From: Kofleriaceae bacterium
GTDB taxonomy: Bacteria; Myxococcota_A; Polyangia; Haliangiales; Haliangiaceae
DNA length: 41,633 nucleotides
Direction of reading: 5' to 3'
Assembly (NCBI GenBank): GCA_018057825.1
Contig: JAGPCY010000020.1
Span: 1-41,633 of the forward strand
A program made the translations under genes and the position numbers. Below, in pieces: positions 5,622 through 41,450 of the stretch (within the stretch, counting starts at the first letter, position 1; the number at the start of each line of letters is the position of its first letter). Below the pieces are notes generated by a model, which saw only the letters and a list, made by a program, of their open reading frames with translations, made no database searches and had not been told where the DNA came from.

Positions 5622-5632
5622 CGTTTCCGCCG

Positions 5633-15851: not shown

Positions 15852-15852
15852 G

Positions 15853-19813: not shown

Positions 19814-21991
19814 CTAGGACCAGCGCGCCGACCAGAACAAGATCGGCCGACCGTCCGAGACCTGCGCCAGGGCCTCGATGGTGGTCCGCTCGACGTGGCG
19901 GTTGTTGGGGGTCCACAGGCTGATGACCTCGGCGTGCGTGTCACCGGTGAGCTGATCGACGACGGTATTGCCGGTCGCGATGCAGGCGTGGTTGGGCGCG
20001 TTCTCGAACACGACGATATCGCCCCGCAGCGGTCGTGGCGAGTTGGGGTCGCCTAGTCGGTAGGTCACCGGGTTGCTGCCACGGCACTGGTCCTCGAACG
20101 TCAGGCCGACCGAGAAGTGCGTGCCGTCCCGAACCCGCTGAACCGCGAGTTGGTAGATCTGGCGCAGGCGTTGCTCGCTGACGACGCCGGCTTGGAACGC
20201 GCCGAACATCACCAGCTCCCAGCAGTTCATTCGCCCGTTGTGCGGATCGGGCTGGGCCTGGGCGGCGAGGAGCCACTGACTGAAGTCGTCGGCGAGCAGC
20301 ATCGGGTCTTGGGCGACCAGCCCGCTGTTGTACTGCGCCCAGTTGAGGCCGCCGACCAGCCCTTCGGCGCCACCCGCCGCGCCCGACTGCGCTAGCGCCC
20401 GCTGCATGTAGGTCGCGCCCTGGGCGGTCATGTCGACTGCCTGCCCTTGCTGGAGATCGCGGAGCGCGAGGCGCAACGCGAGGAGCGCGTGGGCCTCGGT
20501 GTAGGTCGGTGCACCGTAGGCGTTGCGCAGCGGCTGGAACTCGGCGAGGGCGCGGACCTGATCATCGGTGAGGCGGCCCGGATCATTGGCGGCGTTGGTG
20601 GCGTCGGCGTAGGTCTGGAGCGTCGGGCCCTGAGGCGCGCGGTTTCGTGAGCAGCGCTGGAGCTGGAGACCGGTGCGCCACGGATCGCTCGCGGGAGCGC
20701 GGGCGGCCGTGGTCGCGACCGCGCGGTCGGCGTGGTCCTCGGCGGTCGCGTCCTCGGGCCCGATCGGCCGTCGGCGGGCCACCGGGTCGGCGGCCGCGTC
20801 GGCCTGCTGCGCGACGTGAGCCAGCTCGTGGGCGACGAGCGCGTCGCCCTCGAGAGAACCGGCCGCGGGCGCGGCGGCGCCCATGACGATGTTGGTGCCG
20901 ACGGTGAACGCCACGGCGTCGGCGGCGTCGGCCAGGCGCGCTGCGACGGGACCGGTGTGGATCCGGGCGTCGGGGACGGCGCTGCCGAGCGCGTCGCGCA
21001 GCCGGCTCGCCGTGGCGCCGTCGACGGCATGGCCTGGGCCGAGCTCGCGTTCGAGCGACGCCAGGGACGCGCCGCCGTCGGGGCCGCGCAGGGCGTTGGC
21101 CTCGGGCGCAGCCGCGGTGGGGGCGCCGCCGTCGAGGCTGGCGAGCTCAGGCGGTGGGTCGCCGGTGTCGCGCCAGTGCCGGACGCCGGCGCGGACCCGC
21201 TCTACCACGATCGGGATGATCGCCGCGGCAGAGGTCGCGGTGCGCACGCTCGGCGCAAACCGGCGAAGCAGCGCCTCGCCGTCCGCGGCGGAGCGGGTGG
21301 CGTAGCGGCCGAAGTACTGCTCGATGTACGGACAGCCGATCGCGCTGTAGATCGGCCCCAGCTCGGCGTCGGCGGCCTCCGTGACCTGGGCGCGCAGCGT
21401 CGCGAGGAAGACGTCCTTGATCATCTGCCCCGGCTGCGGCGGCCCAACGTCGACCAGGAGGCTGCGCGGCGGTCCGCCGCTGGTCACCTCGGCCGCGACC
21501 TGATCCGCCTCGTGCTCGGCTGGGCTGTCGGAGGCGCCGACCGTGACCGCGCGCGCGACGGCGCGCTGGCCGGCCGCGCCTTGTTGGGCGACGTGGGTCA
21601 GCTCATGAGCCATGAGCCCGAGATCGTCGCCGCGCTCGCCGGGCCCGAGGAAGACGTCGCCTCCGTAGGCGAAGGCGCGGGCGCCCATGGCCTGGGTCGC
21701 CTGCCGCGACAGGGGATCGTCGTGGACGCGCACGCCGGTGAGGTCGACGCCGAGGTGCCCGCCGACCCGCGCGGCGACCGCGCCGTCGACTGTTCCGCCG
21801 CTGCCCTTGTGGTCGACAGCCGCGGTCGCGGCGTCGTGGATCGACGCGTCGGCGCGATCGCCCATGGCTTGGGCCAACGCCGGGTAGCGCGCCGCCAGCC
21901 GCGAGCGCCGTCCGGGCGCGATAGTGCCGGTCCCCGCACTGCCCTCCGCCGTCGTCGTCGCCGTCGTCGCCGTCGAGGGATCCCGTTCCAT
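19814..21991 (-). CDS. Tandem DUF4157 (x2) protein with a C-terminal Cys/His domain; polymorphic-toxin-like (candidate papain-like or transglutaminase-like effector)
   Basis: Two copies of the DUF4157 signature: GVRVHDDPLSRQATQAMGARAFAYGGDVFLGPG...LMAHELTHVAQQ and DARIHTGPVAARLADAADAVAFTVGTNIVMG...LVAHELAHVAQQ. C-terminal ...NGRMNCWELVMFGAF...NAPNHACIATG offers a candidate Cys/His pair. Alternative ATG at 21865. Confidence 0.8.
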   Translation of the reverse strand: MERDPSTATTATTTAEGSAGTGTIAPGRRSRLAARYPALAQAMGDRADASIHDAATAAVDHKGSGGTVDGAVAARVGGHLGVDLTGVRVHDDPLSRQATQAMGARAFAYGGDVFLGPGERGDDLGLMAHELTHVAQQGAAGQRAVARAVTVGASDSPAEHEADQVAAEVTSGGPPRSLLVDVGPPQPGQMIKDVFLATLRAQVTEAADAELGPIYSAIGCPYIEQYFGRYATRSAADGEALLRRFAPSVRTATSAAAIIPIVVERVRAGVRHWRDTGDPPPELASLDGGAPTAAAPEANALRGPDGGASLASLERELGPGHAVDGATASRLRDALGSAVPDARIHTGPVAARLADAADAVAFTVGTNIVMGAAAPAAGSLEGDALVAHELAHVAQQADAAADPVARRRPIGPEDATAEDHADRAVATTAARAPASDPWRTGLQLQRCSRNRAPQGPTLQTYADATNAANDPGRLTDDQVRALAEFQPLRNAYGAPTYTEAHALLALRLALRDLQQGQAVDMTAQGATYMQRALAQSGAAGGAEGLVGGLNWAQYNSGLVAQDPMLLADDFSQWLLAAQAQPDPHNGRMNCWELVMFGAFQAGVVSEQRLRQIYQLAVQRVRDGTHFSVGLTFEDQCRGSNPVTYRLGDPNSPRPLRGDIVVFENAPNHACIATGNTVVDQLTGDTHAEVISLWTPNNRHVERTTIEALAQVSDGRPILFWSARWS

Positions 21992-26557: not shown

Positions 26558-27490
26558 TCAGTCGGTGTCGCCGGGGTCGTGCTCAGCGACGTCGGTCTGG
26601 GCGACGCTGGCCGCGAGCGCCGAGGTCATGCGCTCGCGCAGGGTCTTGGGCCGCGGCTTGAACATAGCCTTGCTGCCGCGGCGGGCGGCGTCCTTGCCGG
26701 CGAGCAAGCCGTCGTGGACCGCGGCCAGGACCGCGGTGGTGCCCTCGCTGCCGCCGCCGTAGGCGCGGACGTAGTCCTTGGCCATGAGGTGATCGACGAC
26801 CGGGCCGAGCTGGTCGTCGAGGGCGCGCAGACCGTCGCGCCAGTCGGCGGTGTCGGGGAGGACGTCGATGATCGCGAGCTGATAGGACAGCTCCTTTGCG
26901 CGTCGACGGAAGCGATGGACTGCGCGGTCCGAGCGCTTCGAGCGCTTGCGCGCCGCGCGCGCGCGGCCGTAGGTCTTGGCGAAGCCGCGGGCCAGCCGGC
27001 GCGGGCGCAGCTCGTCGGGGAGCGCGGCCGTGAGGGCGTCGACGTGGCCGGCCGCGACCGCGACCGCGCGCTGGACGTCGTCGACGATGGTCTCGGGCGG
27101 GATGCGATCGGCGGCGGCGGTGGCGTCGATCGACTCGACCGCCGGGGTCAGCTCGTGGAGCGGCCCGAGGGTGGCCAGGAGCTCGCGGGCGACCCGCTGA
27201 TCGCGGGCCGGGCCGAGGGATCGGCGGGCCTCGGCCAGGCCGCGCTGGAGATCGACCCGATCGCGCTTGGGCAGCGTGCGGGCGACCAGATCGACCAGCG
27301 CGCGGAGCTGGCGCAGGGACTTGCGGACGGCGTGGACCGCAGCGTCGGGATCCTCGGCGGCGGTGGCGGCCGCGGTGCGGGCGTCGGTCAGGGCGGCGGC
27401 GGCGGCGCGCACGATCCGGGCCCGCAGCGAGTCGGCCGACGGCAGGTGGCCGAGCTGGTCAGGCTCGGGATACGACTCGGGACTGGACAT
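26558..27490 (-). CDS. CHAD (conserved histidine alpha-helical) domain protein
   Basis: Helical protein with AVHAVRKSLRQLRALVDLV and AVHRFRRRAKELSYQLAI (CHAD His/Arg helices). Start taken as the internal Met (MSSPESYPEPDQ) of track ORF 26558..27922; start position uncertain by 1-2 nt. Confidence 0.6.
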   Translation of the reverse strand: MSSPESYPEPDQLGHLPSADSLRARIVRAAAAALTDARTAAATAAEDPDAAVHAVRKSLRQLRALVDLVARTLPKRDRVDLQRGLAEARRSLGPARDQRVARELLATLGPLHELTPAVESIDATAAADRIPPETIVDDVQRAVAVAAGHVDALTAALPDELRPRRLARGFAKTYGRARAARKRSKRSDRAVHRFRRRAKELSYQLAIIDVLPDTADWRDGLRALDDQLGPVVDHLMAKDYVRAYGGGSEGTTAVLAAVHDGLLAGKDAARRGSKAMFKPRPKTLRERMTSALAASVAQTDVAEHDPGDTD

Positions 27491-27545
27491 GGCGCGACGA
27501 TAGCAAGCCGGCGCGCCGCGCGGGGACGGTCGGGGTATCGTCACC

Positions 27546-28436
27546 GTGATGTCACGCGACCGGTTCGATCCTGCGCCCAGCCCGTACCTCGTGCCGTTCG
27601 ACCGGCGGTTCGACGCCGCGGACGCCCCGACCAAGCCGCCCAAGGGCGGGCCCGACAAGAAGGACAACGTCGCCGCCCTCGAGCGCGCGGTCGAGCGGCT
27701 GGCCAAGCTGCAACAGCTCCTGTACGCCGACGACCGCTTCGCGCTCCTGATCGTGCTCCAGGCGATGGACGCCGCGGGCAAGGACGGGACCCTGCGCGCG
27801 GTGATGTCGGGCATCAACCCGGCTGGCTGCCAGGTGTTCTCGTTCAAGGCCCCGACCTCCGAGGAGCTCGACCACGACTTCCTGTGGCGCTGCCAGCGCG
27901 CGCTCCCCGAGCGCGGTCGCATCGGCGTGTGGAACCGCAGCCACTACGAGGAGGTGCTGGTGGTGCGGGTCAACCCCAAGTTCCTCGGCGGCCAGCGCTT
28001 GCCCTACGGCACCGACGATCTCCCGGCGTTGTGGCAGGAGCGTTACCAGTCGATCCGCGACTTCGAGCAGCACGCCGCGCGCAACGGCACGGTGATCGTC
28101 AAGTTCTGGTTGAACGTCTCCAAGGACGAGCAGCGCGACCGCATCCTCGAGCGCATCGACGATCCCGAGGCCCACTGGAAGTTCAACGCCGGCGATCTGG
28201 TCGAGCGCGGCAAGTGGGATCAGTACATGGCCGCGTACGGAGACGCGCTCACCGCGACCTCGCGGCCCCACGCGCCGTGGTACGCGATCCCGGCCGACTC
28301 CAAGTCGTTCATGCGCCGCGCCGTCGCCGAGATCCTGGTCGACACCCTCGAGCGCCTGCCCATGCGCTGGCCCGAGCTCAGCGCCGAAGATCGCGCCGAG
28401 ATGCTCGAGGTCCGCGCCAAGCTGGCCGCGGAGTAG
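27546..28436 (+). CDS. ppk2: Polyphosphate kinase 2 (PPK2) family protein
   Basis: PPK2 motifs LLIVLQAMDAAGKDGTLRAVMSGINPAGCQVFSFKAPTSEELDHDFLWRCQRALPERGRIGVWNRSHYEEV (Walker A-like GKDG, lid). Confidence 0.85.
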   Translation: MMSRDRFDPAPSPYLVPFDRRFDAADAPTKPPKGGPDKKDNVAALERAVERLAKLQQLLYADDRFALLIVLQAMDAAGKDGTLRAVMSGINPAGCQVFSFKAPTSEELDHDFLWRCQRALPERGRIGVWNRSHYEEVLVVRVNPKFLGGQRLPYGTDDLPALWQERYQSIRDFEQHAARNGTVIVKFWLNVSKDEQRDRILERIDDPEAHWKFNAGDLVERGKWDQYMAAYGDALTATSRPHAPWYAIPADSKSFMRRAVAEILVDTLERLPMRWPELSAEDRAEMLEVRAKLAAE

Positions 28437-28460: not shown

Positions 28461-29765
28461 TCAATGCCCGCCGGTGGCCGGGCCGGGGCGCTTGCCGGCC
28501 TCGCCGCTGCGCAGGAGCGCGATGCGCAGGGCGATGGGCGCGGTGAGCTCGTTGATCGCGACCACGCCGAGGACCAGGGCGAAGGCCTGATCGCCGAAGG
28601 CGGGGAAGGCGCGGCGGACCAGCTCGGCCAGGGCGAGGGCGAGGCCGGCCTGGGGCACCAGGCCGATCCAGGCTAGGCGACGCACGGTCGGATCGACGCC
28701 GGGGCCGCGGGTGCCGACCCGGCTGCCGGCGTAGAAGCTCGAGGCGCGGACGACGACGATGATCGCGACCGGGGCGGCGACCGCGGCGAGCGCGGCCAGG
28801 TCGAGCTTGGCGCCGGCCAGGGCGAAGAACACCAGGTACACCGGCAGCGACGCGGCCTCGAAGCCGTCCAGGAGCTTGTGGGCGTCGGCCTTCGAGACGT
28901 TCTCGAGCCAGATGCCGGCGGCCAGGGCGATCACCAGCGGATCGAGGTGGACGGCGATGCCGACCTCGGCCAGGACGAAGCACAACATCACCGCGAACAG
29001 GCCGACGCCGCGACCGACGTGCTGGATGAACAGGCCGAGGATGGCGCCGACGAAGATCCCGACCCCGAGCGAGCCGAAGATCTCCCAGGCGATCCGGCCG
29101 ATCGCGGCGCCGACGTTGACGTCGCCGCCGATCACCGCGGTCGCGATCGAGGAGGCCACGCCGTACATGATGATGACCGCCAGGTCGGCGACGATCACCA
29201 GCGCGAGCATGATCTTGGTGAGCACGCCGTCGGAGCGAGTCTCGCCGATCATGGCCATGACCACCGCCGGCGACTGCGCCGACAGCGCGACCGCCAGGGT
29301 CATGGCGACGACCGCGGCGTGGGCCAGGGGCAGCGTGTCGAGGAACGGCACCAGCGGGCGGATCGCGAGCAGGGTCAGGGTGAGCGCGGCCATCGTCCCG
29401 AACACCGCGAAGGCCGTGACCCGGCGGATCACCGCCATCATCGGGCGGATCTTCTTCAGGTTGAGCTCGGCGCCGGCGGTCAGCGCCAGGATCGCAGTGG
29501 TGATGCCGCTCACCAGCTTGAGCTGGCCGGTCATGTTCTTGTCGACCAGCTCGAGGACGTAGGGGCCGACGATGATGCCCGAGCCGATGTAGCCGGTGAG
29601 CTTGGGCAGCCCGACGCGGCTGACCAGCTTGCCGGTGAAGTACGCGGTGAGCAGCAAGAAGCCGAACGCCAGCTCGGTGCCGCCGGCCTGGAAGGTGCCG
29701 GGCGCGAAGCTGCGCGCCGCCTGCATCAGGCCGCCCAGGGCGGCGAGGACGAGGAGCGGGATCAT
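28461..29765 (-). CDS. Cation:proton antiporter (CPA family, Na+/H+ exchanger-like), about 12 TM
   Basis: Polytopic membrane protein with Na_H_exchanger-like composition. Its ATG overlaps the stop of the upstream antiporter gene (ATGA at 29762-29765). Confidence 0.8.
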   Translation of the reverse strand: MIPLLVLAALGGLMQAARSFAPGTFQAGGTELAFGFLLLTAYFTGKLVSRVGLPKLTGYIGSGIIVGPYVLELVDKNMTGQLKLVSGITTAILALTAGAELNLKKIRPMMAVIRRVTAFAVFGTMAALTLTLLAIRPLVPFLDTLPLAHAAVVAMTLAVALSAQSPAVVMAMIGETRSDGVLTKIMLALVIVADLAVIIMYGVASSIATAVIGGDVNVGAAIGRIAWEIFGSLGVGIFVGAILGLFIQHVGRGVGLFAVMLCFVLAEVGIAVHLDPLVIALAAGIWLENVSKADAHKLLDGFEAASLPVYLVFFALAGAKLDLAALAAVAAPVAIIVVVRASSFYAGSRVGTRGPGVDPTVRRLAWIGLVPQAGLALALAELVRRAFPAFGDQAFALVLGVVAINELTAPIALRIALLRSGEAGKRPGPATGGH

Positions 29766-31483
29766 CGCCGGTCGTCCTCGTCGAGGTCGTCGTGGTAGAC
29801 CGGGCCGGCGGCGGGGGCGTCATCGTCGTCGAGTTCGTCGACGGTCGGCGCGACGGCGGGGGTCTCGGCGGCGCTGGCGGTGGCCGCGCGCGGAGTCGGC
29901 GGCGCGGTGAGCTGGACCGCGACCTCGGTGAGGATCGCGCCGCCGATCACGACGGTGACCAGCCACGCGCTCGGCGAGCCGCCGGCCGAGCCCTGCAGCG
30001 ACACCACCAGGGCGATCGCCAGCGGCGACAGCGGCGAGACCAGGACCCGCTGGTCGGCGTAGCCGCGGGGCAAGAGCGCGCCGACCGTCGAGCGGGCGGC
30101 CGCCATGCCGGTCCACTTGCCGACCACCCGGGCGGCGACGAAGGCCGGCACGATCACCCAGGCCTTGGCCAGGCCGACGTCCCAGGCGGCGCCGGCGACG
30201 ATCAGGAACAAGAGGTGGATCGGACGCTCGAGGTGGTTGAGGATCTTGAAGATCGCCTCGCGCTGATCGCACGGGAAGTTGACCACGAGCGCGCCGGCGA
30301 TGAAGCACACGACGATCGGCGACAGGTACAGGTAACCGGCCAGGCCGGCGCCGAGGGCGACCGAGCCGAGGACGACGGCGAGGAACTCGCCCTCGCTCTG
30401 CGGCACCCGGACCATCGTGAAGATCAAGATGCCGACCGCGACCCCCAGGCCGATCGTGATGAACAGCCAGCCGGTGCCCGGCAGGGCCCAGCCGGCGGCG
30501 CCGCTCGGGCGGAAGTAGGCGGCGACGAACAAGAGGCCGACGACGCCGACGATCTCGTCGAGCTGCGACAGCAGGTGGTCGACGCCCCGGCCTTCGCGCC
30601 AGCGCGCCGCCGCGAAGCCGCGGAAGCGGCGCGGCGCGGTCATCGCCCCGGCGGCGCCGATCACGATGGCGTCGCGCCAGAACTCGGGGGCGCGCCAGTC
30701 GGCGAGGCCGAGCGCCGCGGCCAGGGCCGCGGTGGCGCCGGCGACCGCGAGGAACGGGCCGAGGGCCTCGACCACGACCAGGTAGCCGGTGCCGCGGGGG
30801 ACTCGATCGAGGACACGGACGTCGAGCTGGGCGCCGATGATGAAGCCGAGCCAGCCGAGCCCGAAGTGCAAGATCGGCTGCATGCGCTCGAGGACGTCGG
30901 TGGTGAGGATGCCGATGTCGGGCTGCCGGATGATCACCCCGAGGGCGACGAACGGAAAGCCGGCGGCGATGACGCCGCTGATGCCGAGGCGCTGCTCGAG
31001 GGCGACGACCTTGCGATGGCCGCCGAGGTAGGCGAGGGCGAAGATCGCGGTCAGGCCGAGGACCAGCCGCAGGACCACGCCGGTGGGGTTGCCGGTCGGC
31101 TTGGTCGGGGTTGGCGGAGCGGCGGCCGGGGGACCGGTGGTCGATGGTCCGGCGGCGGTGGCGGCGCTCGGAACGGCGGCGTCGCTCGGCGCGGCAACGG
31201 CGCTCGGAACGGCGGCGTCGCTCGGCGCGGCAACGGCGATCGGAACGGCGGCGTCGCTCGGCGCGGGGGCGTCGCTCGGAACGGCGGCGTCGCTCGGCGC
31301 GGCAACGGCGCTCGGAACGGCGGCGTCGCTCGGCGCAGCGGCGTCGCTCGGGGTCGCGACGTCGACCGACGAGCCGGCGTCATCGGCGCGCGCCGAGATC
31401 GGTCCGCGGAGCCCGAGGACGATCGCCAGCGCGATCACGACGAGCGCGGTGATGGCACCGAGGGGGCGGCGCGTCCGACGCAC
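29762..31483 (-). CDS. Cation:proton antiporter (CPA family) with a signal peptide and an N-terminal tandem 12-aa repeat region (AAPSDAAVPSAV)n
   Basis: GTG 31483. MRRTRRPLGAITALVVIALAIVLG signal/TM, then five PSDAAVP-type repeats, then a polytopic transporter core. Acidic C-terminal tail DELDDDDAPAAGPVYHDDLDEDD. Confidence 0.75.
   Translation of the reverse strand: MRRTRRPLGAITALVVIALAIVLGLRGPISARADDAGSSVDVATPSDAAAPSDAAVPSAVAAPSDAAVPSDAPAPSDAAVPIAVAAPSDAAVPSAVAAPSDAAVPSAATAAGPSTTGPPAAAPPTPTKPTGNPTGVVLRLVLGLTAIFALAYLGGHRKVVALEQRLGISGVIAAGFPFVALGVIIRQPDIGILTTDVLERMQPILHFGLGWLGFIIGAQLDVRVLDRVPRGTGYLVVVEALGPFLAVAGATAALAAALGLADWRAPEFWRDAIVIGAAGAMTAPRRFRGFAAARWREGRGVDHLLSQLDEIVGVVGLLFVAAYFRPSGAAGWALPGTGWLFITIGLGVAVGILIFTMVRVPQSEGEFLAVVLGSVALGAGLAGYLYLSPIVVCFIAGALVVNFPCDQREAIFKILNHLERPIHLLFLIVAGAAWDVGLAKAWVIVPAFVAARVVGKWTGMAAARSTVGALLPRGYADQRVLVSPLSPLAIALVVSLQGSAGGSPSAWLVTVVIGGAILTEVAVQLTAPPTPRAATASAAETPAVAPTVDELDDDDAPAAGPVYHDDLDEDDRR
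31163..31360. repeat. 36-bp tandem repeat (about 5 copies; unit gcgctcggaacggcggcgtcgctcggcgcggcaacg) inside the antiporter gene
   Basis: Directly visible periodic repetition; on the minus strand it encodes the AAPSDAAVPSAV repeats. Confidence 0.75.
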
Positions 31484-31506: not shown

Positions 31507-32094
31507 TCACCACGGACAGCGCTCGAGGGCCTCCATCGACGTCGCCGCGAGCACGCAGGTCTCGAAGGCGCGGCTCGGCACCTCGGTCTTGCAGCGCTCG
31601 ACCAGGCGGTCGCTCGGCGTCACGAGGTACGCGTCGACCGCGTTGGTGGCGCGCAGCTTCTCGGCGTGGGCCGCGATCTTCTTGCAGTCGCCGAGGCCGA
31701 GCGGGCGCGGGCACGCGGCCAGATCGCTGCGGCTCTTGGCGCGGATCAGGCACTCGCCGTCGTCCTTGGTCAGCCCGGCGGCGCCGCACTCGCGGCTGAC
31801 GTCGGCCGCGAACTGGGCGCGGACCTCGCGCGGGGCGTAGTTGTCGAGGAAGATCCCGCCCAGGGTCTCGGCCACCTTGGCGCAGTCGGCCGGCGGCGGG
31901 CGCACGCACAGCTCCGACAGGCACAGGAGGCCGACGTCGCAGGTGCGATCGCTGCGGCACGGTCCACGCTCGGTGCCGAGCGCGGCGGTCGGCGTCGGCG
32001 CCGGCGCGGTGCGCTTGCAGCCGGCGCCCACGAGCGCGACGGCGATGGCCGAGACCGCGGCCAGGGAAGGGACAGACGCGAAGGTGCGGGCCAT
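31507..32094 (-). CDS. Cys-rich secreted/lipoprotein-like protein (195 aa)
   Basis: AGGA 6 nt upstream of ATG 32094. MARTFASVPSLAAVSAIAVALVGAGCKR signal. About 12 Cys in the mature part (CRSDRTCDVGLLCLSELC...). Confidence 0.5.
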   Translation of the reverse strand: MARTFASVPSLAAVSAIAVALVGAGCKRTAPAPTPTAALGTERGPCRSDRTCDVGLLCLSELCVRPPPADCAKVAETLGGIFLDNYAPREVRAQFAADVSRECGAAGLTKDDGECLIRAKSRSDLAACPRPLGLGDCKKIAAHAEKLRATNAVDAYLVTPSDRLVERCKTEVPSRAFETCVLAATSMEALERCPW

Positions 32095-32177
32095 ACCTGA
32101 TCCTGTCACGGGAGGTGGCGCAGGTGTCGCGCCGACCGCCTCGACGTGGTCACGGCGGCACCCGGCGAGGACCGCGC

Positions 32178-32621
32178 TCAGTCCTCGAGGCGGGCCAGGG
32201 CCGCGGTGACCGCAGCGTCCTGCTCGCAGGTCATCGCGCCCTCGAAGAACGACTCGGCCGCGGTCTTGGCGCGGTCTTCGTTGGCCTCGATGTAGGCCTT
32301 GCCGCGGGCGTCGATCTCGGCGTCGTCCTTCCACTTGCCGGCCTCGGCCAGGGTCGCGGCGTGGCCGTCGATCACCGTGTTGATCGCCTTGGCCATCGCC
32401 GGACAGTCGCCCTTGTGCGTCTGCGTGGCCTTGGCGATCTGCTCGAACATCGCGAGCATGCCCTCGAACATCGCGTCCTGCTGGGCCTCGGTCGGGCGCG
32501 CCGACGGCGGCGGGTCGGCGGGCGGGGCCACGGTGGTCGGCGGCAGCGGCGCCGGCGCTTGCGGAGCGGGCTTGGAGCCACCACAGGCGGCGAGGAAGAC
32601 GAGGACGGCGAGCATGCGCAT
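32178..32621 (-). CDS. Two-cysteine helical lipoprotein, tandem paralog 1
   Basis: MRMLAVLVFLAACGG (lipobox LAAC), PA-rich linker, then GDCPAMAKAINTVIDGHAATL...AMTCEQDAAVTAALARL. Confidence 0.55.
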   Translation of the reverse strand: MRMLAVLVFLAACGGSKPAPQAPAPLPPTTVAPPADPPPSARPTEAQQDAMFEGMLAMFEQIAKATQTHKGDCPAMAKAINTVIDGHAATLAEAGKWKDDAEIDARGKAYIEANEDRAKTAAESFFEGAMTCEQDAAVTAALARLED

Positions 32622-32683
32622 GCCGTGAGCGTCGCACGGCGGGCGCGTCCCGGCCAGACGCGGTCGGGTGTCTCTCCCGCGCC

Positions 32684-33190
32684 TCAGGTGTCCCCGCTCA
32701 GGCGCGCCATCGCCTCGCGGAAGCGCGGCTCGCCGTCGCATCGCTGCGAGGCCTCGGCCAGCGGCATCGCGACCTTCATGAGCCGATCCATGTGCGTGTT
32801 CATCCAGGTGTTGATCCGCACCTCGAGATCGTCGTCGGCCTCGCGCGCCTTCATCTCGGCGAGGAACCCATCGTGGCGCGCGGTGACCGCCGCGAGGCCG
32901 TCGGCGGCGGCGCGGCAGTCGGTGCCGGCCGCGGTGATGGCGTCGCTGGCCTCGCTGAGGATGTCGATCAGGCGGTTCATCCGCGCGTCGAACTCGGCGT
33001 CGGTGAGCGGCGGCATGGCGGCGCTTCCCGAGGAGCCCTCGGCGGCGGGCGGCGCGGTCGCGGCCGGCGACGTGGGGGGCGGTGCGGTAGGCGGCGCGTT
33101 GGCCGGCGTGTTGGACGGCGCGACGGGCGCCGGCGACGACGAGCCACCGCAGGCGGCGGCGACGAGCACGAGGGCGAAGAGCGCGCGCAT
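32684..33190 (-). CDS. Two-cysteine helical lipoprotein, tandem paralog 2
   Basis: MRALFALVLVAAACGG lipobox, PA-rich linker, then TDCRAAADGLAAVTARHDGFL...ASQRCDGEPRFREAMARL. Confidence 0.55.
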   Translation of the reverse strand: MRALFALVLVAAACGGSSSPAPVAPSNTPANAPPTAPPPTSPAATAPPAAEGSSGSAAMPPLTDAEFDARMNRLIDILSEASDAITAAGTDCRAAADGLAAVTARHDGFLAEMKAREADDDLEVRINTWMNTHMDRLMKVAMPLAEASQRCDGEPRFREAMARLSGDT

Positions 33191-33347
33191 GGTCGTAGGT
33201 TCGCACGGCCGATCGGGCGGCGCCACGCCGCGCGCGATCCGGCGAGGTCGCCGCGCCGCGCGGCCCGAAAACGCCGACGCCCAGCCGCGACCGGAGTCGG
33301 AGCTGGGCGCTGGCGGAGCGACGGCGTCGGCCGTCGCCGGGTGCGGC

Positions 33348-33950
33348 CTACTGCAGGGCCGCCATCTTCTTCATCGCCTCGGCGAACTTGGGGTCGGTCG
33401 CGCACTTCTGGGTGGCCTCGGCGACCTTCATGCCCGGGCCCATCAGCTCACCCATGTGGTTCTGCATCCACTCCCCGGACTTCTTCTGCATCTCCGGGTT
33501 GTCCTTGTAGACCTTCATCTTCTCGATCAGGGCCGAGTTGTCGGCCAGGACCTTCTCCACGCTCCCGGCCAGCTTGCCGCAGTCGCCACCCGCGGCGTCG
33601 ACCGCCGAGGCCATCTGGCCGAGCATCCCGACGAGCTGCTTCATGGTCGCCTCCATCTCGGGGTCGGCCGGGGCGGTGCCAGCCGGGGCGGTGCCACCGG
33701 CGGCGGCCGAGCCAGCGGCCGGGTCGGCGGTGCCAGCGGCGGGGGCCTCGGTGCCAGCGGCGGGGGCGGCGGTGCCAGCGGCGGGGGCGGCGGTACCGGC
33801 GGCGGGGGCCTCGGTGCCAGCGGCGGGGGCGGCGGTGCCAGCGGCGGGCTTGGTCTCGGTCGGGGCCGGAGCGTTCTTCTTCTCCTCCTTCTTGCAGGCG
33901 GCGAAGGTGAACGAGGCGGCGAGCAGGGCGATGGCAGAGAGACGCTTCAT
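33348..33950 (-). CDS. Two-cysteine helical lipoprotein, tandem paralog 3 (with an AAGT-repeat linker)
   Basis: AGGAAG 9 nt upstream of ATG 33950. MKRLSAIALLAASFTFAAC lipobox. Linker (TAAPAAG/TEAPAAG)n. GDCGKLAGSVEKVLADNSAL...ATQKCATDPKFAEAMKKM. Confidence 0.6.
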   Translation of the reverse strand: MKRLSAIALLAASFTFAACKKEEKKNAPAPTETKPAAGTAAPAAGTEAPAAGTAAPAAGTAAPAAGTEAPAAGTADPAAGSAAAGGTAPAGTAPADPEMEATMKQLVGMLGQMASAVDAAGGDCGKLAGSVEKVLADNSALIEKMKVYKDNPEMQKKSGEWMQNHMGELMGPGMKVAEATQKCATDPKFAEAMKKMAALQ

Positions 33951-34083
33951 GGGATCGTGCTTCCTTTGGCGCGCGGTGCGCGGTGCGCGGTCTATCCCAT
34001 AGCGGACCACGGGCAGCAAGTAGAACAATGTCGTCGGGCAGTTACATTCGCCGCGGTGCGACGGCCGGACCGAGCGCGGGCGA

Positions 34084-34518
34084 TCACAAGGTCGGCATCC
34101 GCGCCATCGCCGCCACCACGCTCGCGTCATCGCGGCAGCGCACCAGCCCCGGCCCCATCGCCAGGACCAGGGGCTCGACCCGCTTGGCCCGCAGGTCCAT
34201 CGCGGCCTTCACCAGGCGTGCGCCTTCGGGGTCGTCTTCGACCGCGCGGGTCTGCTCGAACAGCGACGCGCTGCGATCGAACAGCGCGCCGAGCTGGCTG
34301 CCCATGACCTGGCAGTCCGAGGCGGTCGTGATCTGAGCCATCGTCGCGAGGACCTCGACCAGCGCGTCGGCCAGGGCGTCGGCGTAGTCGGCGTCGATGG
34401 TCGGCGCGGGCGCGGGCTCGGCGGGCGTGGTCGGGGCAGGGCGTCCGCCGCCGCCGCAGGCGAGGGCCGTCAGGCTGGTCGCGATCAGCGCGAGAGAGCT
34501 GAGGTTGGATCGCGTCAT
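34084..34518 (-). CDS. Two-cysteine helical lipoprotein, tandem paralog 4
   Basis: ATG 34518 overlaps the TGA of the upstream large lipoprotein gene (ATGA). MTRSNLSSLALIATSLTALACGG lipobox. SDCQVMGSQLGALFDRSASL...LVRCRDDASVVAAMARM. Confidence 0.6.
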   Translation of the reverse strand: MTRSNLSSLALIATSLTALACGGGGRPAPTTPAEPAPAPTIDADYADALADALVEVLATMAQITTASDCQVMGSQLGALFDRSASLFEQTRAVEDDPEGARLVKAAMDLRAKRVEPLVLAMGPGLVRCRDDASVVAAMARMPTL

Positions 34519-36512
34519 GGCATGGGCGGCATGGGAAGATCGGCCTGCTGGGAGCTGACCGCCACGCCGAAGCGGGTCAGCATGATCGGGTCGTCGCGGT
34601 TGTCGCGGTTGTTGTCTATGAACAACCGGACCGAGGCCAGTCGCGGCGCGACGGCCTCGCCCAGGAGGGCGGTCATCGCGGACAGGAGTCGATCGGGGTC
34701 GTCGCTGCCGATAGTGGCCGACAGCGTGACCTGCCCGTCGAAGGTCGCGATCGCGATGGTGTCAGCGTGGTCGTCGTCGTTCATGTAGAGCGCGACCAGC
34801 GCCGACGGTCGCCCAGGCAGCGGGTGATCGACGGCGCCGTCGGGCACCAGGCGCAGCTCGGGATCGCGGCGCAGGCGGTACGACAGCGCGCGGTAGCCGC
34901 TCGGGGTGGAGACCGCACCGACCAGCGCCCTGTCGGTCGACTCGGGGGACGCGCCCGCCAACGGCAGCGGGCTGATCGGACCGACGAACGGCGTGGCCAC
35001 GGGCTGCATCAGGGCGGTATCTCTCGGGCCGGCGAGCGCCAGGTACAGGACGCGGCGGCCGTCGGGGGTGACCTGTTCGAAGGCGAGCACGAGGTCGTCG
35101 TCGTTGTCGTCGTCGTTGTTGTTGTCGTTGTCGTCGACCGATAGGCAGGCCGTCGCCAGGAGCTTTGGCTCCAGGCCCGGCCGCTCGTTGATCAGGCGGG
35201 CCAGGCGACCGACCGACGACGAGTTGGGGTCCGCGGCGGCGATCTCGGTCCCGTCATCCGACAACGTGAACCCGGCGACCGTTCCCGAGCCGTCGTCGAC
35301 CAGGAGGCCGCCGGGGTATTCGCCACATCTCCGCGCGTTCACGATCGTCGTCGCCGGTCGCCCCGGCGCCGGCGTGCCCCGTCGCCACCGCGGCGGGCTG
35401 CTATCGAGGTCGAGGACCAACCAACCGGTGGCGTCGCGGGTGATGACCCTCCCCGCGAGCTGGCCGAGGGCCTCGATTCCGTCGGCAGCGACCTGGTCGG
35501 TGCGCCGCACGCTCGGGGGATCGCCGCGCGAGCCGACGAAGGCCTCGACCCGGGCCGGCCCGACGATCGGGCGAACCAGCCCGACGGCGCGGAAGCCGTT
35601 GCTGGTCGGGACGACCACCCAGTCGGGATCGCGAACGCTCGGCTCCGAGAAGGCCGCGTTGACGCTGACGGTCGGGACGAAGGCCGGGATGCGGTGGACC
35701 TGCTCGGACCACGGCGCGCGGATCAAGACCTCGACCGGACCCGCCGGATCCAAGCAGGAGCCGGCGAGTTCCGCCGGGGGTCGTGGCGCCGGCGCGGGCG
35801 GCACCAGCGTGAACAAGGTCGCGTCGGGCGCCAGGCCGTCGCCCGGATCGGCGCCCGGCGGGGTGACCCGAGGGCCGAGCAGATACTCGCATTCCTCGTC
35901 GGCCCCTTGGCCCGGGGCGACGCGGAGGTAGGCGTCGAGGCCCGGAACCTCGACCATGAGGTTGTCCGGAGACACACGCTCGCGGGCGAAGATCTTGAGG
36001 GGCTGGACGGGAGCTGGCGCATTGGGGCCGAGCCGCAGGCTGGGCAGGAGCGCCGGGCTCGGCAGCACCTGCGTGATGATCGCCGGCGCGATCGGGATCG
36101 CGATCTCGACGTCGTCCTCGATCGCGCCGACCGCAGCGCAACCGCCGGCGATGATCTGGTTGCGAGCGTCGTAGCCGGTGACGACGATCTGCTTGTCGGC
36201 CAGGCGCGGGACGTCATCGAGCCGCAGCGGTGGGAACGCGCCGCCGCGCGGACGCGAGCCTCGGGTCACGGTCTCGAGGGCGGCGTCGAGAGCCTCGGTC
36301 CGGTAGCGCCCCAGGGCGATGTCGCGGCAGACCGTCTCTTGGTTGACGTCGCCGAGGGTGTAGACCGCGACCTCGACGCGGGTGACCTCGGCCGCCAGAT
36401 CGGTCCGCTCGCCGTAGTCGAAGACGACGGCGAGCGTCGGGTCGGTGCACCCGGACGCGGCGATGGCGGCGGCGATGGCGGCGGTCACGGCGGCCTGGGT
36501 CACCGGGCGCAT
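34515..36512 (-). CDS. Large lipoprotein (665 aa) with a poly-Asp/Asn tract
   Basis: MRPVTQAAVTAAIAAAIAASGC signal/lipobox-like. Acidic tracts VDDNDNNNDDDNDDD and IDNNRDNRDD. High GC3. Leads the lipoprotein array. Confidence 0.6.
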   Translation of the reverse strand: MRPVTQAAVTAAIAAAIAASGCTDPTLAVVFDYGERTDLAAEVTRVEVAVYTLGDVNQETVCRDIALGRYRTEALDAALETVTRGSRPRGGAFPPLRLDDVPRLADKQIVVTGYDARNQIIAGGCAAVGAIEDDVEIAIPIAPAIITQVLPSPALLPSLRLGPNAPAPVQPLKIFARERVSPDNLMVEVPGLDAYLRVAPGQGADEECEYLLGPRVTPPGADPGDGLAPDATLFTLVPPAPAPRPPAELAGSCLDPAGPVEVLIRAPWSEQVHRIPAFVPTVSVNAAFSEPSVRDPDWVVVPTSNGFRAVGLVRPIVGPARVEAFVGSRGDPPSVRRTDQVAADGIEALGQLAGRVITRDATGWLVLDLDSSPPRWRRGTPAPGRPATTIVNARRCGEYPGGLLVDDGSGTVAGFTLSDDGTEIAAADPNSSSVGRLARLINERPGLEPKLLATACLSVDDNDNNNDDDNDDDLVLAFEQVTPDGRRVLYLALAGPRDTALMQPVATPFVGPISPLPLAGASPESTDRALVGAVSTPSGYRALSYRLRRDPELRLVPDGAVDHPLPGRPSALVALYMNDDDHADTIAIATFDGQVTLSATIGSDDPDRLLSAMTALLGEAVAPRLASVRLFIDNNRDNRDDPIMLTRFGVAVSSQQADLPMPPMP

Positions 36513-36584
36513 TCTGCGACGATACCACCGCGCGCGAGGGCGCGGCCGATCGGGTATCCTGCGCGGGTGATCGATCGCACCACG

Positions 36585-37916
<1,332 letters not shown>

Positions 37917-37934
37917 CGACCGATCGACCGCGCG

Positions 37935-39638
37935 ATGATCGGCCAACGCATCGGCGACTACGAGATCCTGTCGGCGCTCAAGTCGGGCGGGATGGGAGAC
38001 GTGCTCCTGGCGCGGCGCCACGGGCCGGCCGGGTTCGAGCAGCTCTGCGCCGTCAAGACCGTGCGCGCCGAGCTGGCGGCGACCCCGGTGGCGCGCGCGA
38101 TGTTCCTCGACGAGGCGCGCCTGCTGGCGCGGCTATCGCATCCCGGCATCGCCCAGATCATCGACTTCGGCGAGGCCAGCGGCGTGGCCTTCATGGTGAT
38201 GGAGTACGTGCCGGGGATGAGCTTCCGCGGGCTGAGCGACAAGGCGGCGCCGCCAGCGGTGGTGTGTCAGGCGGTGGCGCAGGCGTGCCGCGGGCTCCAC
38301 GCCGCCCACGAGCTGCGCGATCTGATCGACGGCCACCTGCTGGGCGTGGTCCATCGCGACATCAGCCCCGACAACCTGATGCTCGGGTACGACGCTCGGG
38401 TCAAGGTCCTCGACTTTGGCATCGCGCTGGTCCGCGGACGGCAGGCCCCGGTGACCGAGCTGGGCACGCTCAAGGGCAAGCCGCCGTACATGTCGCCCGA
38501 GCAGCTCAAGAACCACGCGCTCGATCGGCGGTCGGACGTGTTCTCGATCGCGGTCGTGCTGTGGGAGCTGCTGGCGCGCGAGCCGCTATTCCGTGGCGAC
38601 TCGATCTACGCGGTGGCGCGCGCGGTCGAGGAGCAGGTGATCGCCCCGCCGTCGAGTCGGACCGCCGGCTTGCCCGCCGATCTCGACGACGTGGTGCTGG
38701 CCGGGCTGGCGCGCGAGCCGTCGCAGCGGCTGGCCAGCGCGGCGGCGATGGCCGAGGTCCTCGAGCGGATCGCGGCGCGCGCCGGCGGATCGTCGCTCGA
38801 GGCCTGGACCGAGCGCGCCCTGGCCGAGGAGCGCGAGCACCATCGGCGGTGGCTGGCCCAGGTGATCGCGGGTGGCCGCGCGGCGGGTGGGCCGGGGCGG
38901 CCGAGCGGGGTCGCGACCGCGATCGACGCGACCGGGGTCCGCGAGGCGACCCGGGTGACCGTGGTCGACGTCGCCGAGCCGACGATCGAGGACGTCGTCG
39001 CGCCGACCCACGAGGTCGCCGAGCGGCGCGAGGCGTCGGCGGCGGAGGCGGGGCCGACGCTGGTCGAGGCGGCCTCGGCCGACGGTGGAGCGCGGCCGCC
39101 CCGTCGGCGCTGGCCCCTCGCGCTCGGCGGGCTGGGCGGCGTCGGCGCGATCGCGGCGGTGGTCTGGAGCCTGGGGCGCGGCGGCGGCGCGGCGACGGTG
39201 GCGATGCCCGACGCGGGCGCGATCGACGCGCTGCCGGTCGACGCGGCCGAGGTCGTCGCGGGCGACGCGGCCGCGGTCGACGCGACCGCGATCGAGGACG
39301 CCGGGCCGCCGGACGCGCCCGAGCCGCGGCGCCCCGACGGTCGTCCGCCGCGCTCGCCGGTCGACGCCGCGGTCGCGGTGGCGCGCCCGATCGACGCCGG
39401 TCCCGCGGCCGCCCCGCCGATCGACGCCGCGGTGGCGACCGGACGGCTGGCGGTGCGGGCGTGGAGCCCGGCGGCCCTGGTCACCGTCGACGGGCGCGAC
39501 TGGGGCGAGACCCCGATCCTGCCGCGCAAGCTGCCGGTCGGGACCTACGAGGTCGTGCTGCGCAGTCCGCTCGACGGCGCGATCGTCCACCGCGCGACCG
39601 TGACGATCGTCGCCGGCGAGACGGTCACGGTCCGGTGA
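37935..39638 (+). CDS. Hanks-type Ser/Thr protein kinase with a C-terminal TM segment and PEGA domain
   Basis: Kinase subdomains: YEILSALKSGGMGDV, AVK, HRDISPDNLML, DFGIA, GKPPYMSPEQ. TM LALGGLGGVGAIAAVVW. PEGA LAVRAWSPAALVTVDGRDWGETPILPRKLPVGTYEVVLRS. Confidence 0.85.
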   Translation: MIGQRIGDYEILSALKSGGMGDVLLARRHGPAGFEQLCAVKTVRAELAATPVARAMFLDEARLLARLSHPGIAQIIDFGEASGVAFMVMEYVPGMSFRGLSDKAAPPAVVCQAVAQACRGLHAAHELRDLIDGHLLGVVHRDISPDNLMLGYDARVKVLDFGIALVRGRQAPVTELGTLKGKPPYMSPEQLKNHALDRRSDVFSIAVVLWELLAREPLFRGDSIYAVARAVEEQVIAPPSSRTAGLPADLDDVVLAGLAREPSQRLASAAAMAEVLERIAARAGGSSLEAWTERALAEEREHHRRWLAQVIAGGRAAGGPGRPSGVATAIDATGVREATRVTVVDVAEPTIEDVVAPTHEVAERREASAAEAGPTLVEAASADGGARPPRRRWPLALGGLGGVGAIAAVVWSLGRGGGAATVAMPDAGAIDALPVDAAEVVAGDAAAVDATAIEDAGPPDAPEPRRPDGRPPRSPVDAAVAVARPIDAGPAAAPPIDAAVATGRLAVRAWSPAALVTVDGRDWGETPILPRKLPVGTYEVVLRSPLDGAIVHRATVTIVAGETVTVR

Positions 39639-39662: not shown

Positions 39663-41450
39663 TCAGCGCGGGATGGCCAGGAGCCAGCCGGTGTCGTCGA
39701 GGAAGCCGTAGACCGCGGCGTCGTCGGCGACGGGCGGTGGACCGGTCAGCTCGCCGGGGATGGCCCAGCGCGCGCGCCGGGCGCCGCTGACCCGATCGAT
39801 CGTCTCGAGCGCGGCGCCGGTCGCGGTGATCGACAGCGCGGTCAGGCGCGGGCCGCCGAAGAGCGCGACGATCGTGGCGTCGGCGGGGCCGGGCACGCGG
39901 CGCGGCGGGCGACGATCGAGGGGCGCGATCACCAGCGCGGCCGCGCCGCTCGCGGTGATCAGCTCGTCGCCGACTCGGACCAGGCCCGCGCCCAGCGACT
40001 CGGCGGGGCCGCGTTCGAACAGCGCCACCCGGCCCGACCCACGGGCGGCGCGGTACACGCCGTCACCGGGGCGACCGAGGGAGGTGTAGTAGACGTGGGC
40101 GCCGAGCGGCAGCACCGCGGCCGGCGTGAAGCCGTCGCCGTCGACCGCGGTCGGGGTCGGCGCGTGGAACACCGCGGCCCCGCCGGCGCCGGTGGCGCGC
40201 CACAGCCGCCAGCCGTCGGCCCACCACACGTCGGTCGCGCCGATCGTCAGGCCGTCGACCCGGCCGACCTCCGTGGCCAGGGTTCGCACGGCGCCGTCGC
40301 GCTCGATCGCTCGCACCGACGCGGTGGCGGCGTCGGCGAAGGCGACCCGCCCCCGACCCGCGGCCAAGGCCTCGACCGCGCCGGCGGTGGCCAGCGGGCG
40401 CGCCGCGCCGGTCGCGCGTTCGACCGCGACGATCGCATCGGGGCGCCCGGCGCGGTCGCCGCTGGCGTAGACGACGCGGTCGCGCTCGACCGCGAGGGCC
40501 CGCGGCGCCGTCGCCACCGTCGCCAGCACCACCGCCGGGCGCGACCAGGCGCTCGGCCGAGCGATCCACCACAGCCCGGCGCGGCCGTCGCGATCGCGCA
40601 GCGTCACCACCACGCCGGCGTCGGCGACGACCAGCGGGCTGGCGTCGGCGATCAGCCCGCCGTCGACGGCCGGCGCGACCAGGCCGCGGCCGCCCCGCCA
40701 CTCGGCGAGGGCGCCGCCGAGCACGAGCAGCAGGCGATCGCCGTCCACGCCGAGGGCGCCCAGCCGGCCGCGGGCCTCGCGTCGGCGCGCGCCGGTGCGC
40801 AGGTCGACGCTGGCCAGGCCGTCGGTCGGGCTGATCCAGTACAGGCGTGGCGCGATCACGGCCACGGCCCGCGGGTCGGGGCCGGCGCTGGCCACGACGG
40901 TCGGCGCGCCGGTGGCCTTGGCGAGCGCGACGATCGCGCCGCTGGCGGTGGCCGCGAACACCCGGGTCGCGTCGGTGGTGAGCGCGACCACCGGGCCGCG
41001 CAGCCGCGTCAGCGTCCGGGCCCGGCCGGAGGCATCGACGCCGAGCACGCCGTCGTCGACGCCGAGCCAGGCGCCCTCGCGATCGGCGACCAGCGCGTGC
41101 CAGGCCGGCAAGGCCGCGACCGCGCGCAGCGCGCCGCCGCTGGTCGCGACGGTGAACAGGCGATCGGCCGCGGCCGCGTACACGCGCTCGCCGTCGCTGG
41201 CCAGGGCGAGGATCGGGCTCGGTGGGCGCGCCAGCACGACCGCGCCGCCGCGCCACGGCCGGCGCCACAGCGCGCCCTCGACGTACCAGTACGCGGCTTG
41301 GCGATCGGCCGCGACCACCGCGAGGTCGCCGTCTGCGAGCGCGATGGCGGCGGGCGGCGTCGGCGCGACCGCCGCGACCGGTCGCCCGCCGGTCCGACAG
41401 GCTGCGATCGCCGCGAGCACCAGCAGCGCCCACCGCGGCCGAACTAGCAT
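39663..41450 (-). CDS. Lipoprotein-like hypothetical protein with repetitive, beta-propeller-like sequence (595 aa)
   Basis: MLVRPRWALLVLAAIAAC signal/lipobox. Repetitive Ala/Gly/Val/Arg-rich units. High GC3. Its ATG overlaps the end of the upstream partial gene. Confidence 0.5.
   Translation of the reverse strand: MLVRPRWALLVLAAIAACRTGGRPVAAVAPTPPAAIALADGDLAVVAADRQAAYWYVEGALWRRPWRGGAVVLARPPSPILALASDGERVYAAAADRLFTVATSGGALRAVAALPAWHALVADREGAWLGVDDGVLGVDASGRARTLTRLRGPVVALTTDATRVFAATASGAIVALAKATGAPTVVASAGPDPRAVAVIAPRLYWISPTDGLASVDLRTGARRREARGRLGALGVDGDRLLLVLGGALAEWRGGRGLVAPAVDGGLIADASPLVVADAGVVVTLRDRDGRAGLWWIARPSAWSRPAVVLATVATAPRALAVERDRVVYASGDRAGRPDAIVAVERATGAARPLATAGAVEALAAGRGRVAFADAATASVRAIERDGAVRTLATEVGRVDGLTIGATDVWWADGWRLWRATGAGGAAVFHAPTPTAVDGDGFTPAAVLPLGAHVYYTSLGRPGDGVYRAARGSGRVALFERGPAESLGAGLVRVGDELITASGAAALVIAPLDRRPPRRVPGPADATIVALFGGPRLTALSITATGAALETIDRVSGARRARWAIPGELTGPPPVADDAAVYGFLDDTGWLLAIPR

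Follow-up and report, generated by a model that had tools for sequence, protein, structure and literature searches.

A 41,633-nt stretch of DNA from an uncultured Kofleriaceae-like myxobacterium (contig JAGPCY010000020.1 of assembly GCA_018057825.1; hereafter the window) carries six genes for predicted lipoproteins on the minus strand (36512..31507), back to back with genes for an FHA-domain sigma-54 enhancer-binding protein (EBP) and a PEGA-domain Ser/Thr kinase. Four of these lipoproteins, P1 to P4, possess a Met-rich helical domain with two invariant cysteines (2-Cys domain), which is an undescribed protein family in a familiar kind of genomic setting. The locus seems to be a conserved, lineage-specific cell-envelope cluster, and the explanation that we favour, with some reserve, is that it encodes tethered 2-Cys binding modules transcribed from sigma-70-type promoters, with the sigma-54 target of the EBP located elsewhere.

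The gene arrangement had been described in an earlier note made from the DNA letters, and direct reading of the sequence bears it out: six minus-strand lipoprotein genes with lipoboxes, linkers, a DC...C pattern and an ATGA overlap, the last and furthest downstream being Cys-rich. P1 (34518..34084, 144 aa), P2 (33950..33348, 200 aa), P3 (33190..32684, 168 aa) and P4 (32621..32178, 147 aa) are indeed duplicated and diverged paralogs, given a colinear alignment of ~100 aa with pairwise BLASTP E-values of 1e-6 to 1e-24; the match takes in the full length of their C-terminal ~105 residues, and both the D-C and the second C are invariant. P2 and P3 are particularly close (E 1.5e-24), P3 being a diverged P2-type duplicate, and P4 forms an ortholog group of its own. 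A family hidden Markov model (HMM) run on the six-frame translation of the window recovers exactly four copies, P1-P4, at 134-155 bits. All four conform to one signature, a helical domain of ~105 aa in which D-C opens helix 2 and C-x-x-D follows ~58 residues on. Both cysteines are invariant in 166/166 aligned domain copies, 160 of the 166 have exactly two, and an Asp precedes Cys1 in 143/166. Methionine makes up 6.2% of the domain versus 0.2-2.8% of neighbouring proteins (P2 has 12 Met per 105 aa), and the Met positions are conserved together with a W-M-x-x-H motif. The AlphaFold2 (AF2) model, built from a 13-sequence alignment, consists entirely of helices (predicted local distance difference test score, pLDDT, 94.9; predicted template modelling score 0.84), in agreement with the helical domain of the earlier note. 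In this model Cys1 begins helix 2 and Cys2 ends helix 3; since both positions lie at the open side of a single helical hairpin, a disulfide staple is plausible on geometric grounds, and a periplasmic disulfide between the two invariant cysteines is most likely.

The family is large and unannotated. When HMMER was run over all 1.84 billion representatives, clustered at 50% identity, 843 clusters from metagenomes matched at E<=1e-3 and 162 did so at E<=1e-10; a word-indexed search gave 17 relatives only. Of the 163 top-scoring sequences, 135 possess a lipobox and ~7 a type-I (SPI-type) signal, and two domains are found in nine proteins and three in one. Neither Pfam nor NCBIfam matched the 2-Cys proteins of the window, ten distant members or 146 members scanned singly, and the PDB holds no relative of the domain beyond a marginal DUF305 profile match. 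Searching GTDB genomes with the P2 subfamily yielded only 3 loci, all in uncultured metagenome-assembled genomes (MAGs), and a metagenome scan with a distant subfamily found 10 loci in varied contexts (including rnf genes, secreted hypotheticals and a lipoprotein fusion), among which no common partner gene emerged. This fusion, on a lower-GC metagenome contig (L021, 958-2556), is a 532-aa lipoprotein whose C-terminus is formed by a 2-Cys domain. The family appears to be typical of Myxococcota envelopes and, with at least 843 unannotated clusters and a confident predicted fold that lacks a solved relative, it would merit a Pfam entry and a structure.

Related loci were drawn from uncultured Myxococcales/Kofleriaceae MAGs and metagenomes (L001, L003, L004/L005, L006, L008, L009, L011 and L012-14), L012-14 being conspecific with the window (99-99.7% nucleotide identity). 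The shared order runs from the kinase to the FHA-EBP and, divergently, from the large lipoprotein Big through a P1-type gene, 1-4 further 2-Cys genes and the Cys-rich lipoprotein CR to a ~570-aa membrane protein, a CPA2-type Na+/H+ exchanger, PPK2 and CHAD. It recurs in 8 distinct loci, and the divergence of EBP and Big is kept in every related locus that extends that far. Copy-number variation of the DC...C family, which the earlier note had suggested looking for, is evident, as the related loci possess 2-6 domains: two in L006, three in L004, four in the window, five in L001 and L008 and six in L003, where one gene is a two-domain fusion.

Rates of evolution differ within the cluster. The closest comparison is with L011, whose flanking genes are 93-98% identical to those of the window with ratios of nonsynonymous to synonymous substitution (dN/dS) of 0.05-0.21. 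There, Big retains 76% amino acid identity (dN/dS 0.58), P2 66% (0.62, and 0.65 for the helical domain alone) and P3 79% (0.31), and P1, P4 and CR reach 92-93% at dN/dS 0.15-0.26 (P1 0.16). Within Big, residues ~180-550 show values of 0.5-0.85 and residues 550-609 a value of 0.07, and a pairwise dN/dS above 1 is limited to the first 60 codons, signal peptide included. In deeper relatives the regulators and transporters are 63-86% identical, CR 56-72%, P1 50-62%, P2 and P4 24-55% and Big 26-33%, against 67-86% for the neighbours of Big; over all relatives compared, CR conservation spans 56-93%. Such identities and dN/dS values indicate intact, constrained genes, and the pseudogenisation of the paralogs for which the earlier note had allowed is not seen (dN/dS 0.15-0.62). 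Big and the P2-type genes evolve much faster than their neighbours, a contrast with genes 93-99% identical that marks the locus as an envelope hot spot and a candidate for diversifying selection.

The lipobox pattern {DERK}(6)-[LIVMFWSTAG](2)-[LIVMFYSTAGCQ]-[AGS]-C fits Big, P1-P4 and CR alike, and with a signal peptide ending in a lipobox of the type [LVI][ASTVI][GAS]C (PROSITE PS51257-type) they are predicted bacterial lipoproteins, i.e. substrates of Lgt and LspA. The linkers of P1-P4 measure 19-76 aa and consist of P, A, G, T and S to 79-89%. The longest, the 76-aa linker of P2, is encoded by a 21-nt tandem repeat of 7.9 units at 33687-33848, and through this repeat P2 is 181, 186, 192 or 200 aa long among relatives, near-identical strains included (P0001, L011 and L012 were examined). 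The mature N-terminus of P1 reads CGGGG and its conserved C-terminus ...MARMPTL; the predicted mature chain starts with CGG in P1, P3 and P4 and with CTD in Big. P2 (CKKEEKK) and CR (CKRT) have a Lys at position +2 that is kept in orthologs. A +2 Lys marks inner-membrane lipoproteins of Myxococcus xanthus (PMC3222651), and by this rule P2 and CR are predicted to be retained in the inner membrane; P1, P3, P4 and Big would go to the outer membrane by default.

Big (36512..34515, minus strand, 665 aa) is a beta-rich lipoprotein with FG-GAP-like motifs near its C-terminus. It has no sequence match in Pfam, NCBIfam or PDB; FG-GAP_3 appears as a weak match (E 0.0047) in 1/8 Big orthologs, in which DxDGD-like motifs are visible, and an AF2 model based on three close homologs only is too poor for use (pLDDT 40.6). 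The poly-Asp/Asn run for which the earlier note singled out Big does exist, as a (GAC/AAC)n triplet repeat at 35094-35136, but it is lineage-specific and lacks a counterpart in the Big proteins of the relatives compared. The stop codon of Big and the ATG of P1 share ATGA, and in all loci the codons of P1 overlap or abut Big, a constancy that suggests a stoichiometric pair. L011 (2391-6259) holds two tandem, codon-overlapped Big genes (629 and 660 aa, ~31% identity), thus Big also duplicates. CR (32094..31507, minus strand, 195 aa) is the last lipoprotein gene of the cluster in all cases. Its 12 invariant cysteines form a C-x5-C-x5-C-x4-C knot followed by two ~60-aa 4-Cys units, with Cys spacings of 32/12/13 and 31/12/13 residues in this internal repeat. 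No family or PDB match was found for CR, and the idea that it consists of two degenerate 2-Cys domains was rejected (hhalign probability 5%).

Transcription was examined in the intergenic regions of this GC-rich part of the window (72-75% G+C). Big is separated from the EBP by 72 nt if the latter starts at ATG 36585 and by 54 nt if it starts at GTG 36567. The GTG start is the most likely one: 8 loci keep it, along with the peptide VIDRTT... and the codons for it, and in two of these loci the downstream ATG is missing. Within the 54-nt spacer two elements are kept across 8 loci and the remainder varies; neither comes with a Shine-Dalgarno sequence. On the plus strand a -10-like TATCCT (36555..36560) lies 6 nt ahead of the EBP GTG, a distance of mostly 6-7 nt among loci (4 nt in L006), and its reverse complement AGGATA is invariant in 8/8 aligned loci. 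On the minus strand an extended -10, TGGTATCGT (36519..36527), precedes the Big ATG by 6 nt; as TGn(or CGn)-TAnnnT it stands 6-7 nt (up to 9 nt in L006) before Big in 8 loci. Both would be leaderless-type promoters, that of Big of the sigma-70 kind, our criterion being TGnTAnnnT ~6-8 nt before a start without a Shine-Dalgarno sequence. Of the four occurrences of TATCGT-N5-8-ATG in the window (0.15 expected), three stand at the starts of Big, PPK2 and CHAD. The PPK2 and CHAD genes (27488-27551) are themselves divergent and both apparently leaderless, with TATCGT 6-8 nt before each ATG. From the conservation in 8 loci and the enrichment of the motif at starts we infer that these promoters form one class, leaderless and of the sigma-70 extended -10 type, and Big-P1 looks to be under such a predicted promoter. 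P2 is preceded by a predicted promoter of its own (33991..34050, minus strand), whose conserved blocks TGTAAGC...GACATTGTT...TTGCnn-N17-GATAGA recur in six loci (with TGTAAC(G) and TTGCTG-N17-GATAGA in the window); a palindromic CTATGGGATAG overlaps it, found once per locus and only upstream of the P2-type gene. A Shine-Dalgarno sequence, AAGGA, lies at 33966-33962, and a terminator-like hairpin with UUUUC follows the gene at 33268..33315 on the minus strand (-65.1 kcal/mol, z -3.98), hairpin and T-run being conserved in L011, L001 and L003; a simple terminator scan needs 5 T and therefore leaves it unflagged. The single lipoprotein operon of the earlier note does not hold, as P2 appears to be a separate transcription unit and the lipoprotein genes seem to form at least three, none of them with a sigma-54 promoter.

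The earlier note had itself failed to find a convincing -24/-12 element, and a calibrated scan agrees. The GG/GC criterion, TGGCACG-N4-TTGCW upstream of a gene, was applied as a strict consensus and as a position weight matrix (PWM) that approximates the Barrios consensus and was calibrated on shuffled sequences, where scores >=10 arise 7.6 times per 41.6 kb, >=14 0.76 times and >=17 0.02 times. The PWM scan covered the window and 11 loci, and the result for the lipoprotein genes refers to seven loci (the window, L001, L003, L004, L006, L008 and L009). Upstream of Big in the window the PWM finds no -24/-12 site scoring >=7, and none of the lipoprotein genes in the 7 loci is preceded by a site that both exceeds chance and keeps its position. 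The best score in the window (14.6, 20160+) falls inside an eCIS_core gene on the opposite strand, and a candidate at 27490 was rejected, being the extended -10 of CHAD in reverse orientation. The scans thus give no support to sigma-54 control of the lipoprotein genes. On the far side of the kinase, L004 (3980-4260) and L003 (2995-3167), on the minus strand, do have a predicted sigma-54 promoter ~35-50 nt before a gene for an unrelated 334/340-aa lipoprotein, namely TGGCAAGCGAGTTGCT in L004 (score 17.7) and TGGCGTCGGGCTTGCT in L003 (11.7), with upstream dyads GAGGTACCGG...CCGGTACCTC and GAGGTCCCG...CGGGACCTC, respectively. This gene is the better candidate for the FHA-EBP target in L003 and L004; the window has no homolog of it, and a search of the window for the L003/L004 dyad found none. 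Just upstream of the far-side promoter region, L004 also contains a (GGGCAA)x14 microsatellite (~4150-4235). The locus shows that adjacency to an EBP does not equal being its sigma-54 target, and it offers the conserved leaderless extended -10 as a testable alternative.

As the earlier note had stated, the divergent gene pair consists of an FHA-EBP (36567..37916, plus strand) and, after a gap of 18 nt, a PEGA kinase (37935..39638, plus strand). The EBP is a bacterial enhancer-binding protein (bEBP): Pfam assigns FHA (5e-15), Sigma54_activat (9.9e-66), AAA_lid and a Fis-type HTH_8 (5.8e-4), and GAFTGA is present in the translation. NCBIfam matches are to bEBPs only and miss every equivalog cutoff, which rules out assignment to any named EBP. 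The kinase (Pkinase 5e-32; PEGA 9.5e-7, 29.1 bits at a cutoff of 20.8) combines a cytoplasmic kinase domain, one transmembrane (TM) segment, an Ala/Asp/Pro-rich periplasmic linker and a C-terminal PEGA domain, which is 54-73% identical among relatives versus 67-99% for the kinase domain. From their domain make-up the two are plausibly a phospho-Thr signalling pair of known kind.

In our preferred explanation, P1-P4 would each display one helical, Met-rich domain, stapled by a disulfide and mounted on a disordered Pro/Ala linker of repeat-driven length, with CR closing the lipoprotein set; tandem duplication, fusion and fast sequence change would have shaped the family. Big-P1 would be transcribed from the leaderless extended -10 and P2 from its own promoter, with Shine-Dalgarno sequence and terminator. 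The domains might act as tethered periplasmic binding modules, possibly with a role in metal or envelope stress, P1 and Big in a complex at the outer membrane and P2 and CR held at the inner membrane, the Met-lined helices binding a partner protein or a ligand that is either hydrophobic or a soft metal. Kinase and EBP would form a co-transcribed phospho-Thr signalling pair, with a sigma-54 target that is not among these lipoprotein genes. Several points weigh against this explanation. That the domains are binding modules is guessed from their composition and architecture, the Cys pair may be a metal site instead, and the promoters and leaderless starts are derived solely from conservation. Distant members sit in unrelated contexts, so gene neighbourhood gives no function, and adjacency is weak evidence of shared function because the loci represent a single lineage, whose synteny extends over the wider block as far as PPK2/CHAD. 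Moreover, a dN/dS below 1 cannot tell relaxed from diversifying selection.

Other explanations connect the lipoproteins more directly to the regulators. The earlier note had proposed a chain from kinase to FHA-activator to lipoproteins. In such a chain the PEGA kinase would phosphorylate a partner, the EBP would read the phospho-Thr and sigma-54 transcription of the lipoproteins would follow as a Psp/Zra-like envelope-stress output. The kinase/EBP neighbour pair is conserved, as is the divergence of EBP and Big in all loci, and the layout is like that of pspF<>pspA and zraP<>zraSR. A distant family member (P0116, on the Polyangia contig L007, 1970-5090) lies two genes after a receiver-type EBP and has a weak GG-N10-GC, GGGCATTGGGTCTGCA, 55 nt before its ATG, and the sigma-54 EBP CorR of M. 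xanthus governs the CorSR copper operon (PMC3707914), one gene of which, MXAN_3416, encodes a DUF305 lipoprotein. Yet the sigma-54 step lacks promoter support: the scans gave no above-chance element upstream of the six lipoprotein genes in 7 loci, the 54-nt intergenic region is taken up by the two -10-like boxes, and the strong sigma-54 promoter with its dyad in L003 and L004 precedes a different gene beyond the kinase, which leaves this chain improbable. Alternatively, the lipoproteins could be inputs, i.e. periplasmic co-sensors of the RcsF/NlpE/QseG/LpoB kind that touch the PEGA domain of the kinase, the EBP acting elsewhere or repressing the divergent sigma-70 promoter as feedback. Their nature as tethered domains would suit this, as would the periplasmic position of PEGA on a long linker and the conserved linkage in which the kinase is the outer edge of the syntenic block; repression of a sigma-A promoter is on record for a myxobacterial bEBP, PexR. 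However, PEGA changes more slowly than Big, P2 and P4 (24-55% identity), with no obvious co-variation, and the 8-locus alignment reveals no conserved dyad in the intergenic region. Nor are distant members consistently found beside kinases; a Ser/Thr protein kinase does lie within 8 kb in 3/3 long contigs, but kinases are very abundant. We regard the input role as unlikely. Rather unlikely, too, is that the 2-Cys lipoproteins and Big together form the sensing front end (receptor or co-receptor) of the path from PEGA kinase to FHA-EBP, diversified by tandem duplication, with the EBP acting on a remote sigma-54 promoter and/or repressing the divergent leaderless promoter; if true, this would be a receptor/co-receptor arrangement in a bacterium. 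A link of the lipoproteins to the kinase and EBP at the regulatory or protein level may exist all the same.

The composition of the 2-Cys domain and the rates of Big and P2 lead to two further explanations. Met-richness, the W-M-x-x-H motif and two invariant cysteines would fit periplasmic buffers of soft metals (Cu/Ag) or of envelope stress similar to CopM/DUF305, ZraP, CpxP or Spy. The best PDB sequence-profile match is a DUF305 protein (E 0.016; hhalign probability 53%), sub-threshold matches to Metal_resist (4/146) and LTXXQ (2/146) occur, CopM/DUF305 binds copper (PMC4335983), and the DUF305 lipoprotein of M. xanthus belongs to a copper operon. Against this, the His-His motif of DUF305 is not conserved in the 2-Cys family and the Cys pair is absent from DUF305, Pfam DUF305 matches 0/146 members even at E<=1, and the window holds no copper ATPase, multicopper oxidase or Cus genes. 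We give such buffering little credence, and the marginal DUF305 similarity may serve as a lead, not as evidence of membership. The locus might also be a polymorphic surface, toxin-immunity or kin-recognition system in which Big is a variable effector or recognition protein and the paralogs a growing immunity or decoy array. Big and P2 diverge very fast between otherwise similar relatives, copy number varies, L011 has its second Big, and the linkers are repeat-driven and variable in length. But Big is without a toxin domain, and neither Pfam and NCBIfam (toxin or defence domains) nor PADLOC gave a match for Big, P1-P4 or CR. Likewise, the locus is stable and free of mobile elements, P1, P4 and CR are clearly under purifying selection (dN/dS 0.15-0.26), and ratios above 1 are confined in Big to its first 60 codons, which include the signal peptide. 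This makes a polymorphic system very improbable.

Downstream of CR on the minus strand, a 573-aa multi-TM protein and an overlapping exchanger of the Na_H_Exchanger/CPA2 type (28461..31483) are neighbours kept in all loci, though their membership in the cluster is uncertain. The 573-aa protein has no Pfam match and is weakly similar to the adjacent CPA2 exchanger (E 0.012); the linker that follows its first TM segment is of the AAPSDAAVPS type and is encoded by a 36-nt repeat of 5.3 units (31150-31390). In L006 a MarR gene stands between CR and the gene for the 573-aa-type membrane protein. Convergent with the kinase, a minus-strand gene at 39663-41450 encodes a 595-aa lipoprotein (ALLVLAAIAAC) without a family match, a homologue of which comes after a DUF2804 gene in L013 and L014. 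Elsewhere the window encodes two eCIS_core-domain proteins (331-2778, plus; 19814-21991, minus), a HARE-HTH and AAA_5 (McrB-like) protein (5615-8533, plus) and an ECF-type sigma factor (14994-16277, minus). These eCIS_core, McrB-like and ECF genes are unconnected to the lipoprotein cluster.

Several known systems share features with the locus. The envelope-stress modules pspF<>pspABCDE and zraP<>zraSR of Enterobacteria likewise place a bEBP gene divergent from genes for small helical envelope proteins; their effector genes have canonical -24/-12 promoters, whereas none were found here, and the proteins described here, lipoproteins with a Cys pair, have no sequence relation to PspA or ZraP. Membership in the CpxP/Spy/ZraP families (PF07813, PF13801) was rejected, with 2/146 and 4/146 sub-threshold matches (best E 0.0068). 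DUF305/CopM proteins are similar as periplasmic or lipid-anchored, Met-rich helical bundles of ~100 aa, in which a helix-DPE-helix segment is colinear with that of the 2-Cys domain, but differ in having the His-His metal motif and no invariant Cys pair; judged by PF03713 and the His-His motif, the 2-Cys proteins do not belong to them. LpoA/LpoB/LpoP, RcsF, NlpE and QseG are tethered regulatory lipoproteins whose architecture is comparable, a lipid anchor and a long disordered linker allowing a small globular domain to reach a partner across the periplasm. They differ from the tandem paralogs of this locus in sequence and lack significant fold similarity to them (weak Foldseek matches to LpoP and QseE/QseG, E>1). 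FHA-type EBPs belong to a known myxobacterial class, and a close parallel to the regulators comes from M. xanthus, where Jelsbak, Givskov and Kaiser reportedly described FHA-domain sigma-54 EBPs paired with Ser/Thr kinases in 2005 (PNAS 102:3010). The kinase described here differs in its periplasmic PEGA domain, and at the adjacent divergent genes the scans found no sigma-54 promoter. The EBPs themselves agree in an FHA domain in place of the receiver, an AAA+ GAFTGA module, a Fis-type HTH and an adjacent eukaryote-like kinase, and for work on such kinase/FHA-EBP pairs the locus provides a compact, conserved setting in which to seek input, partner and target.

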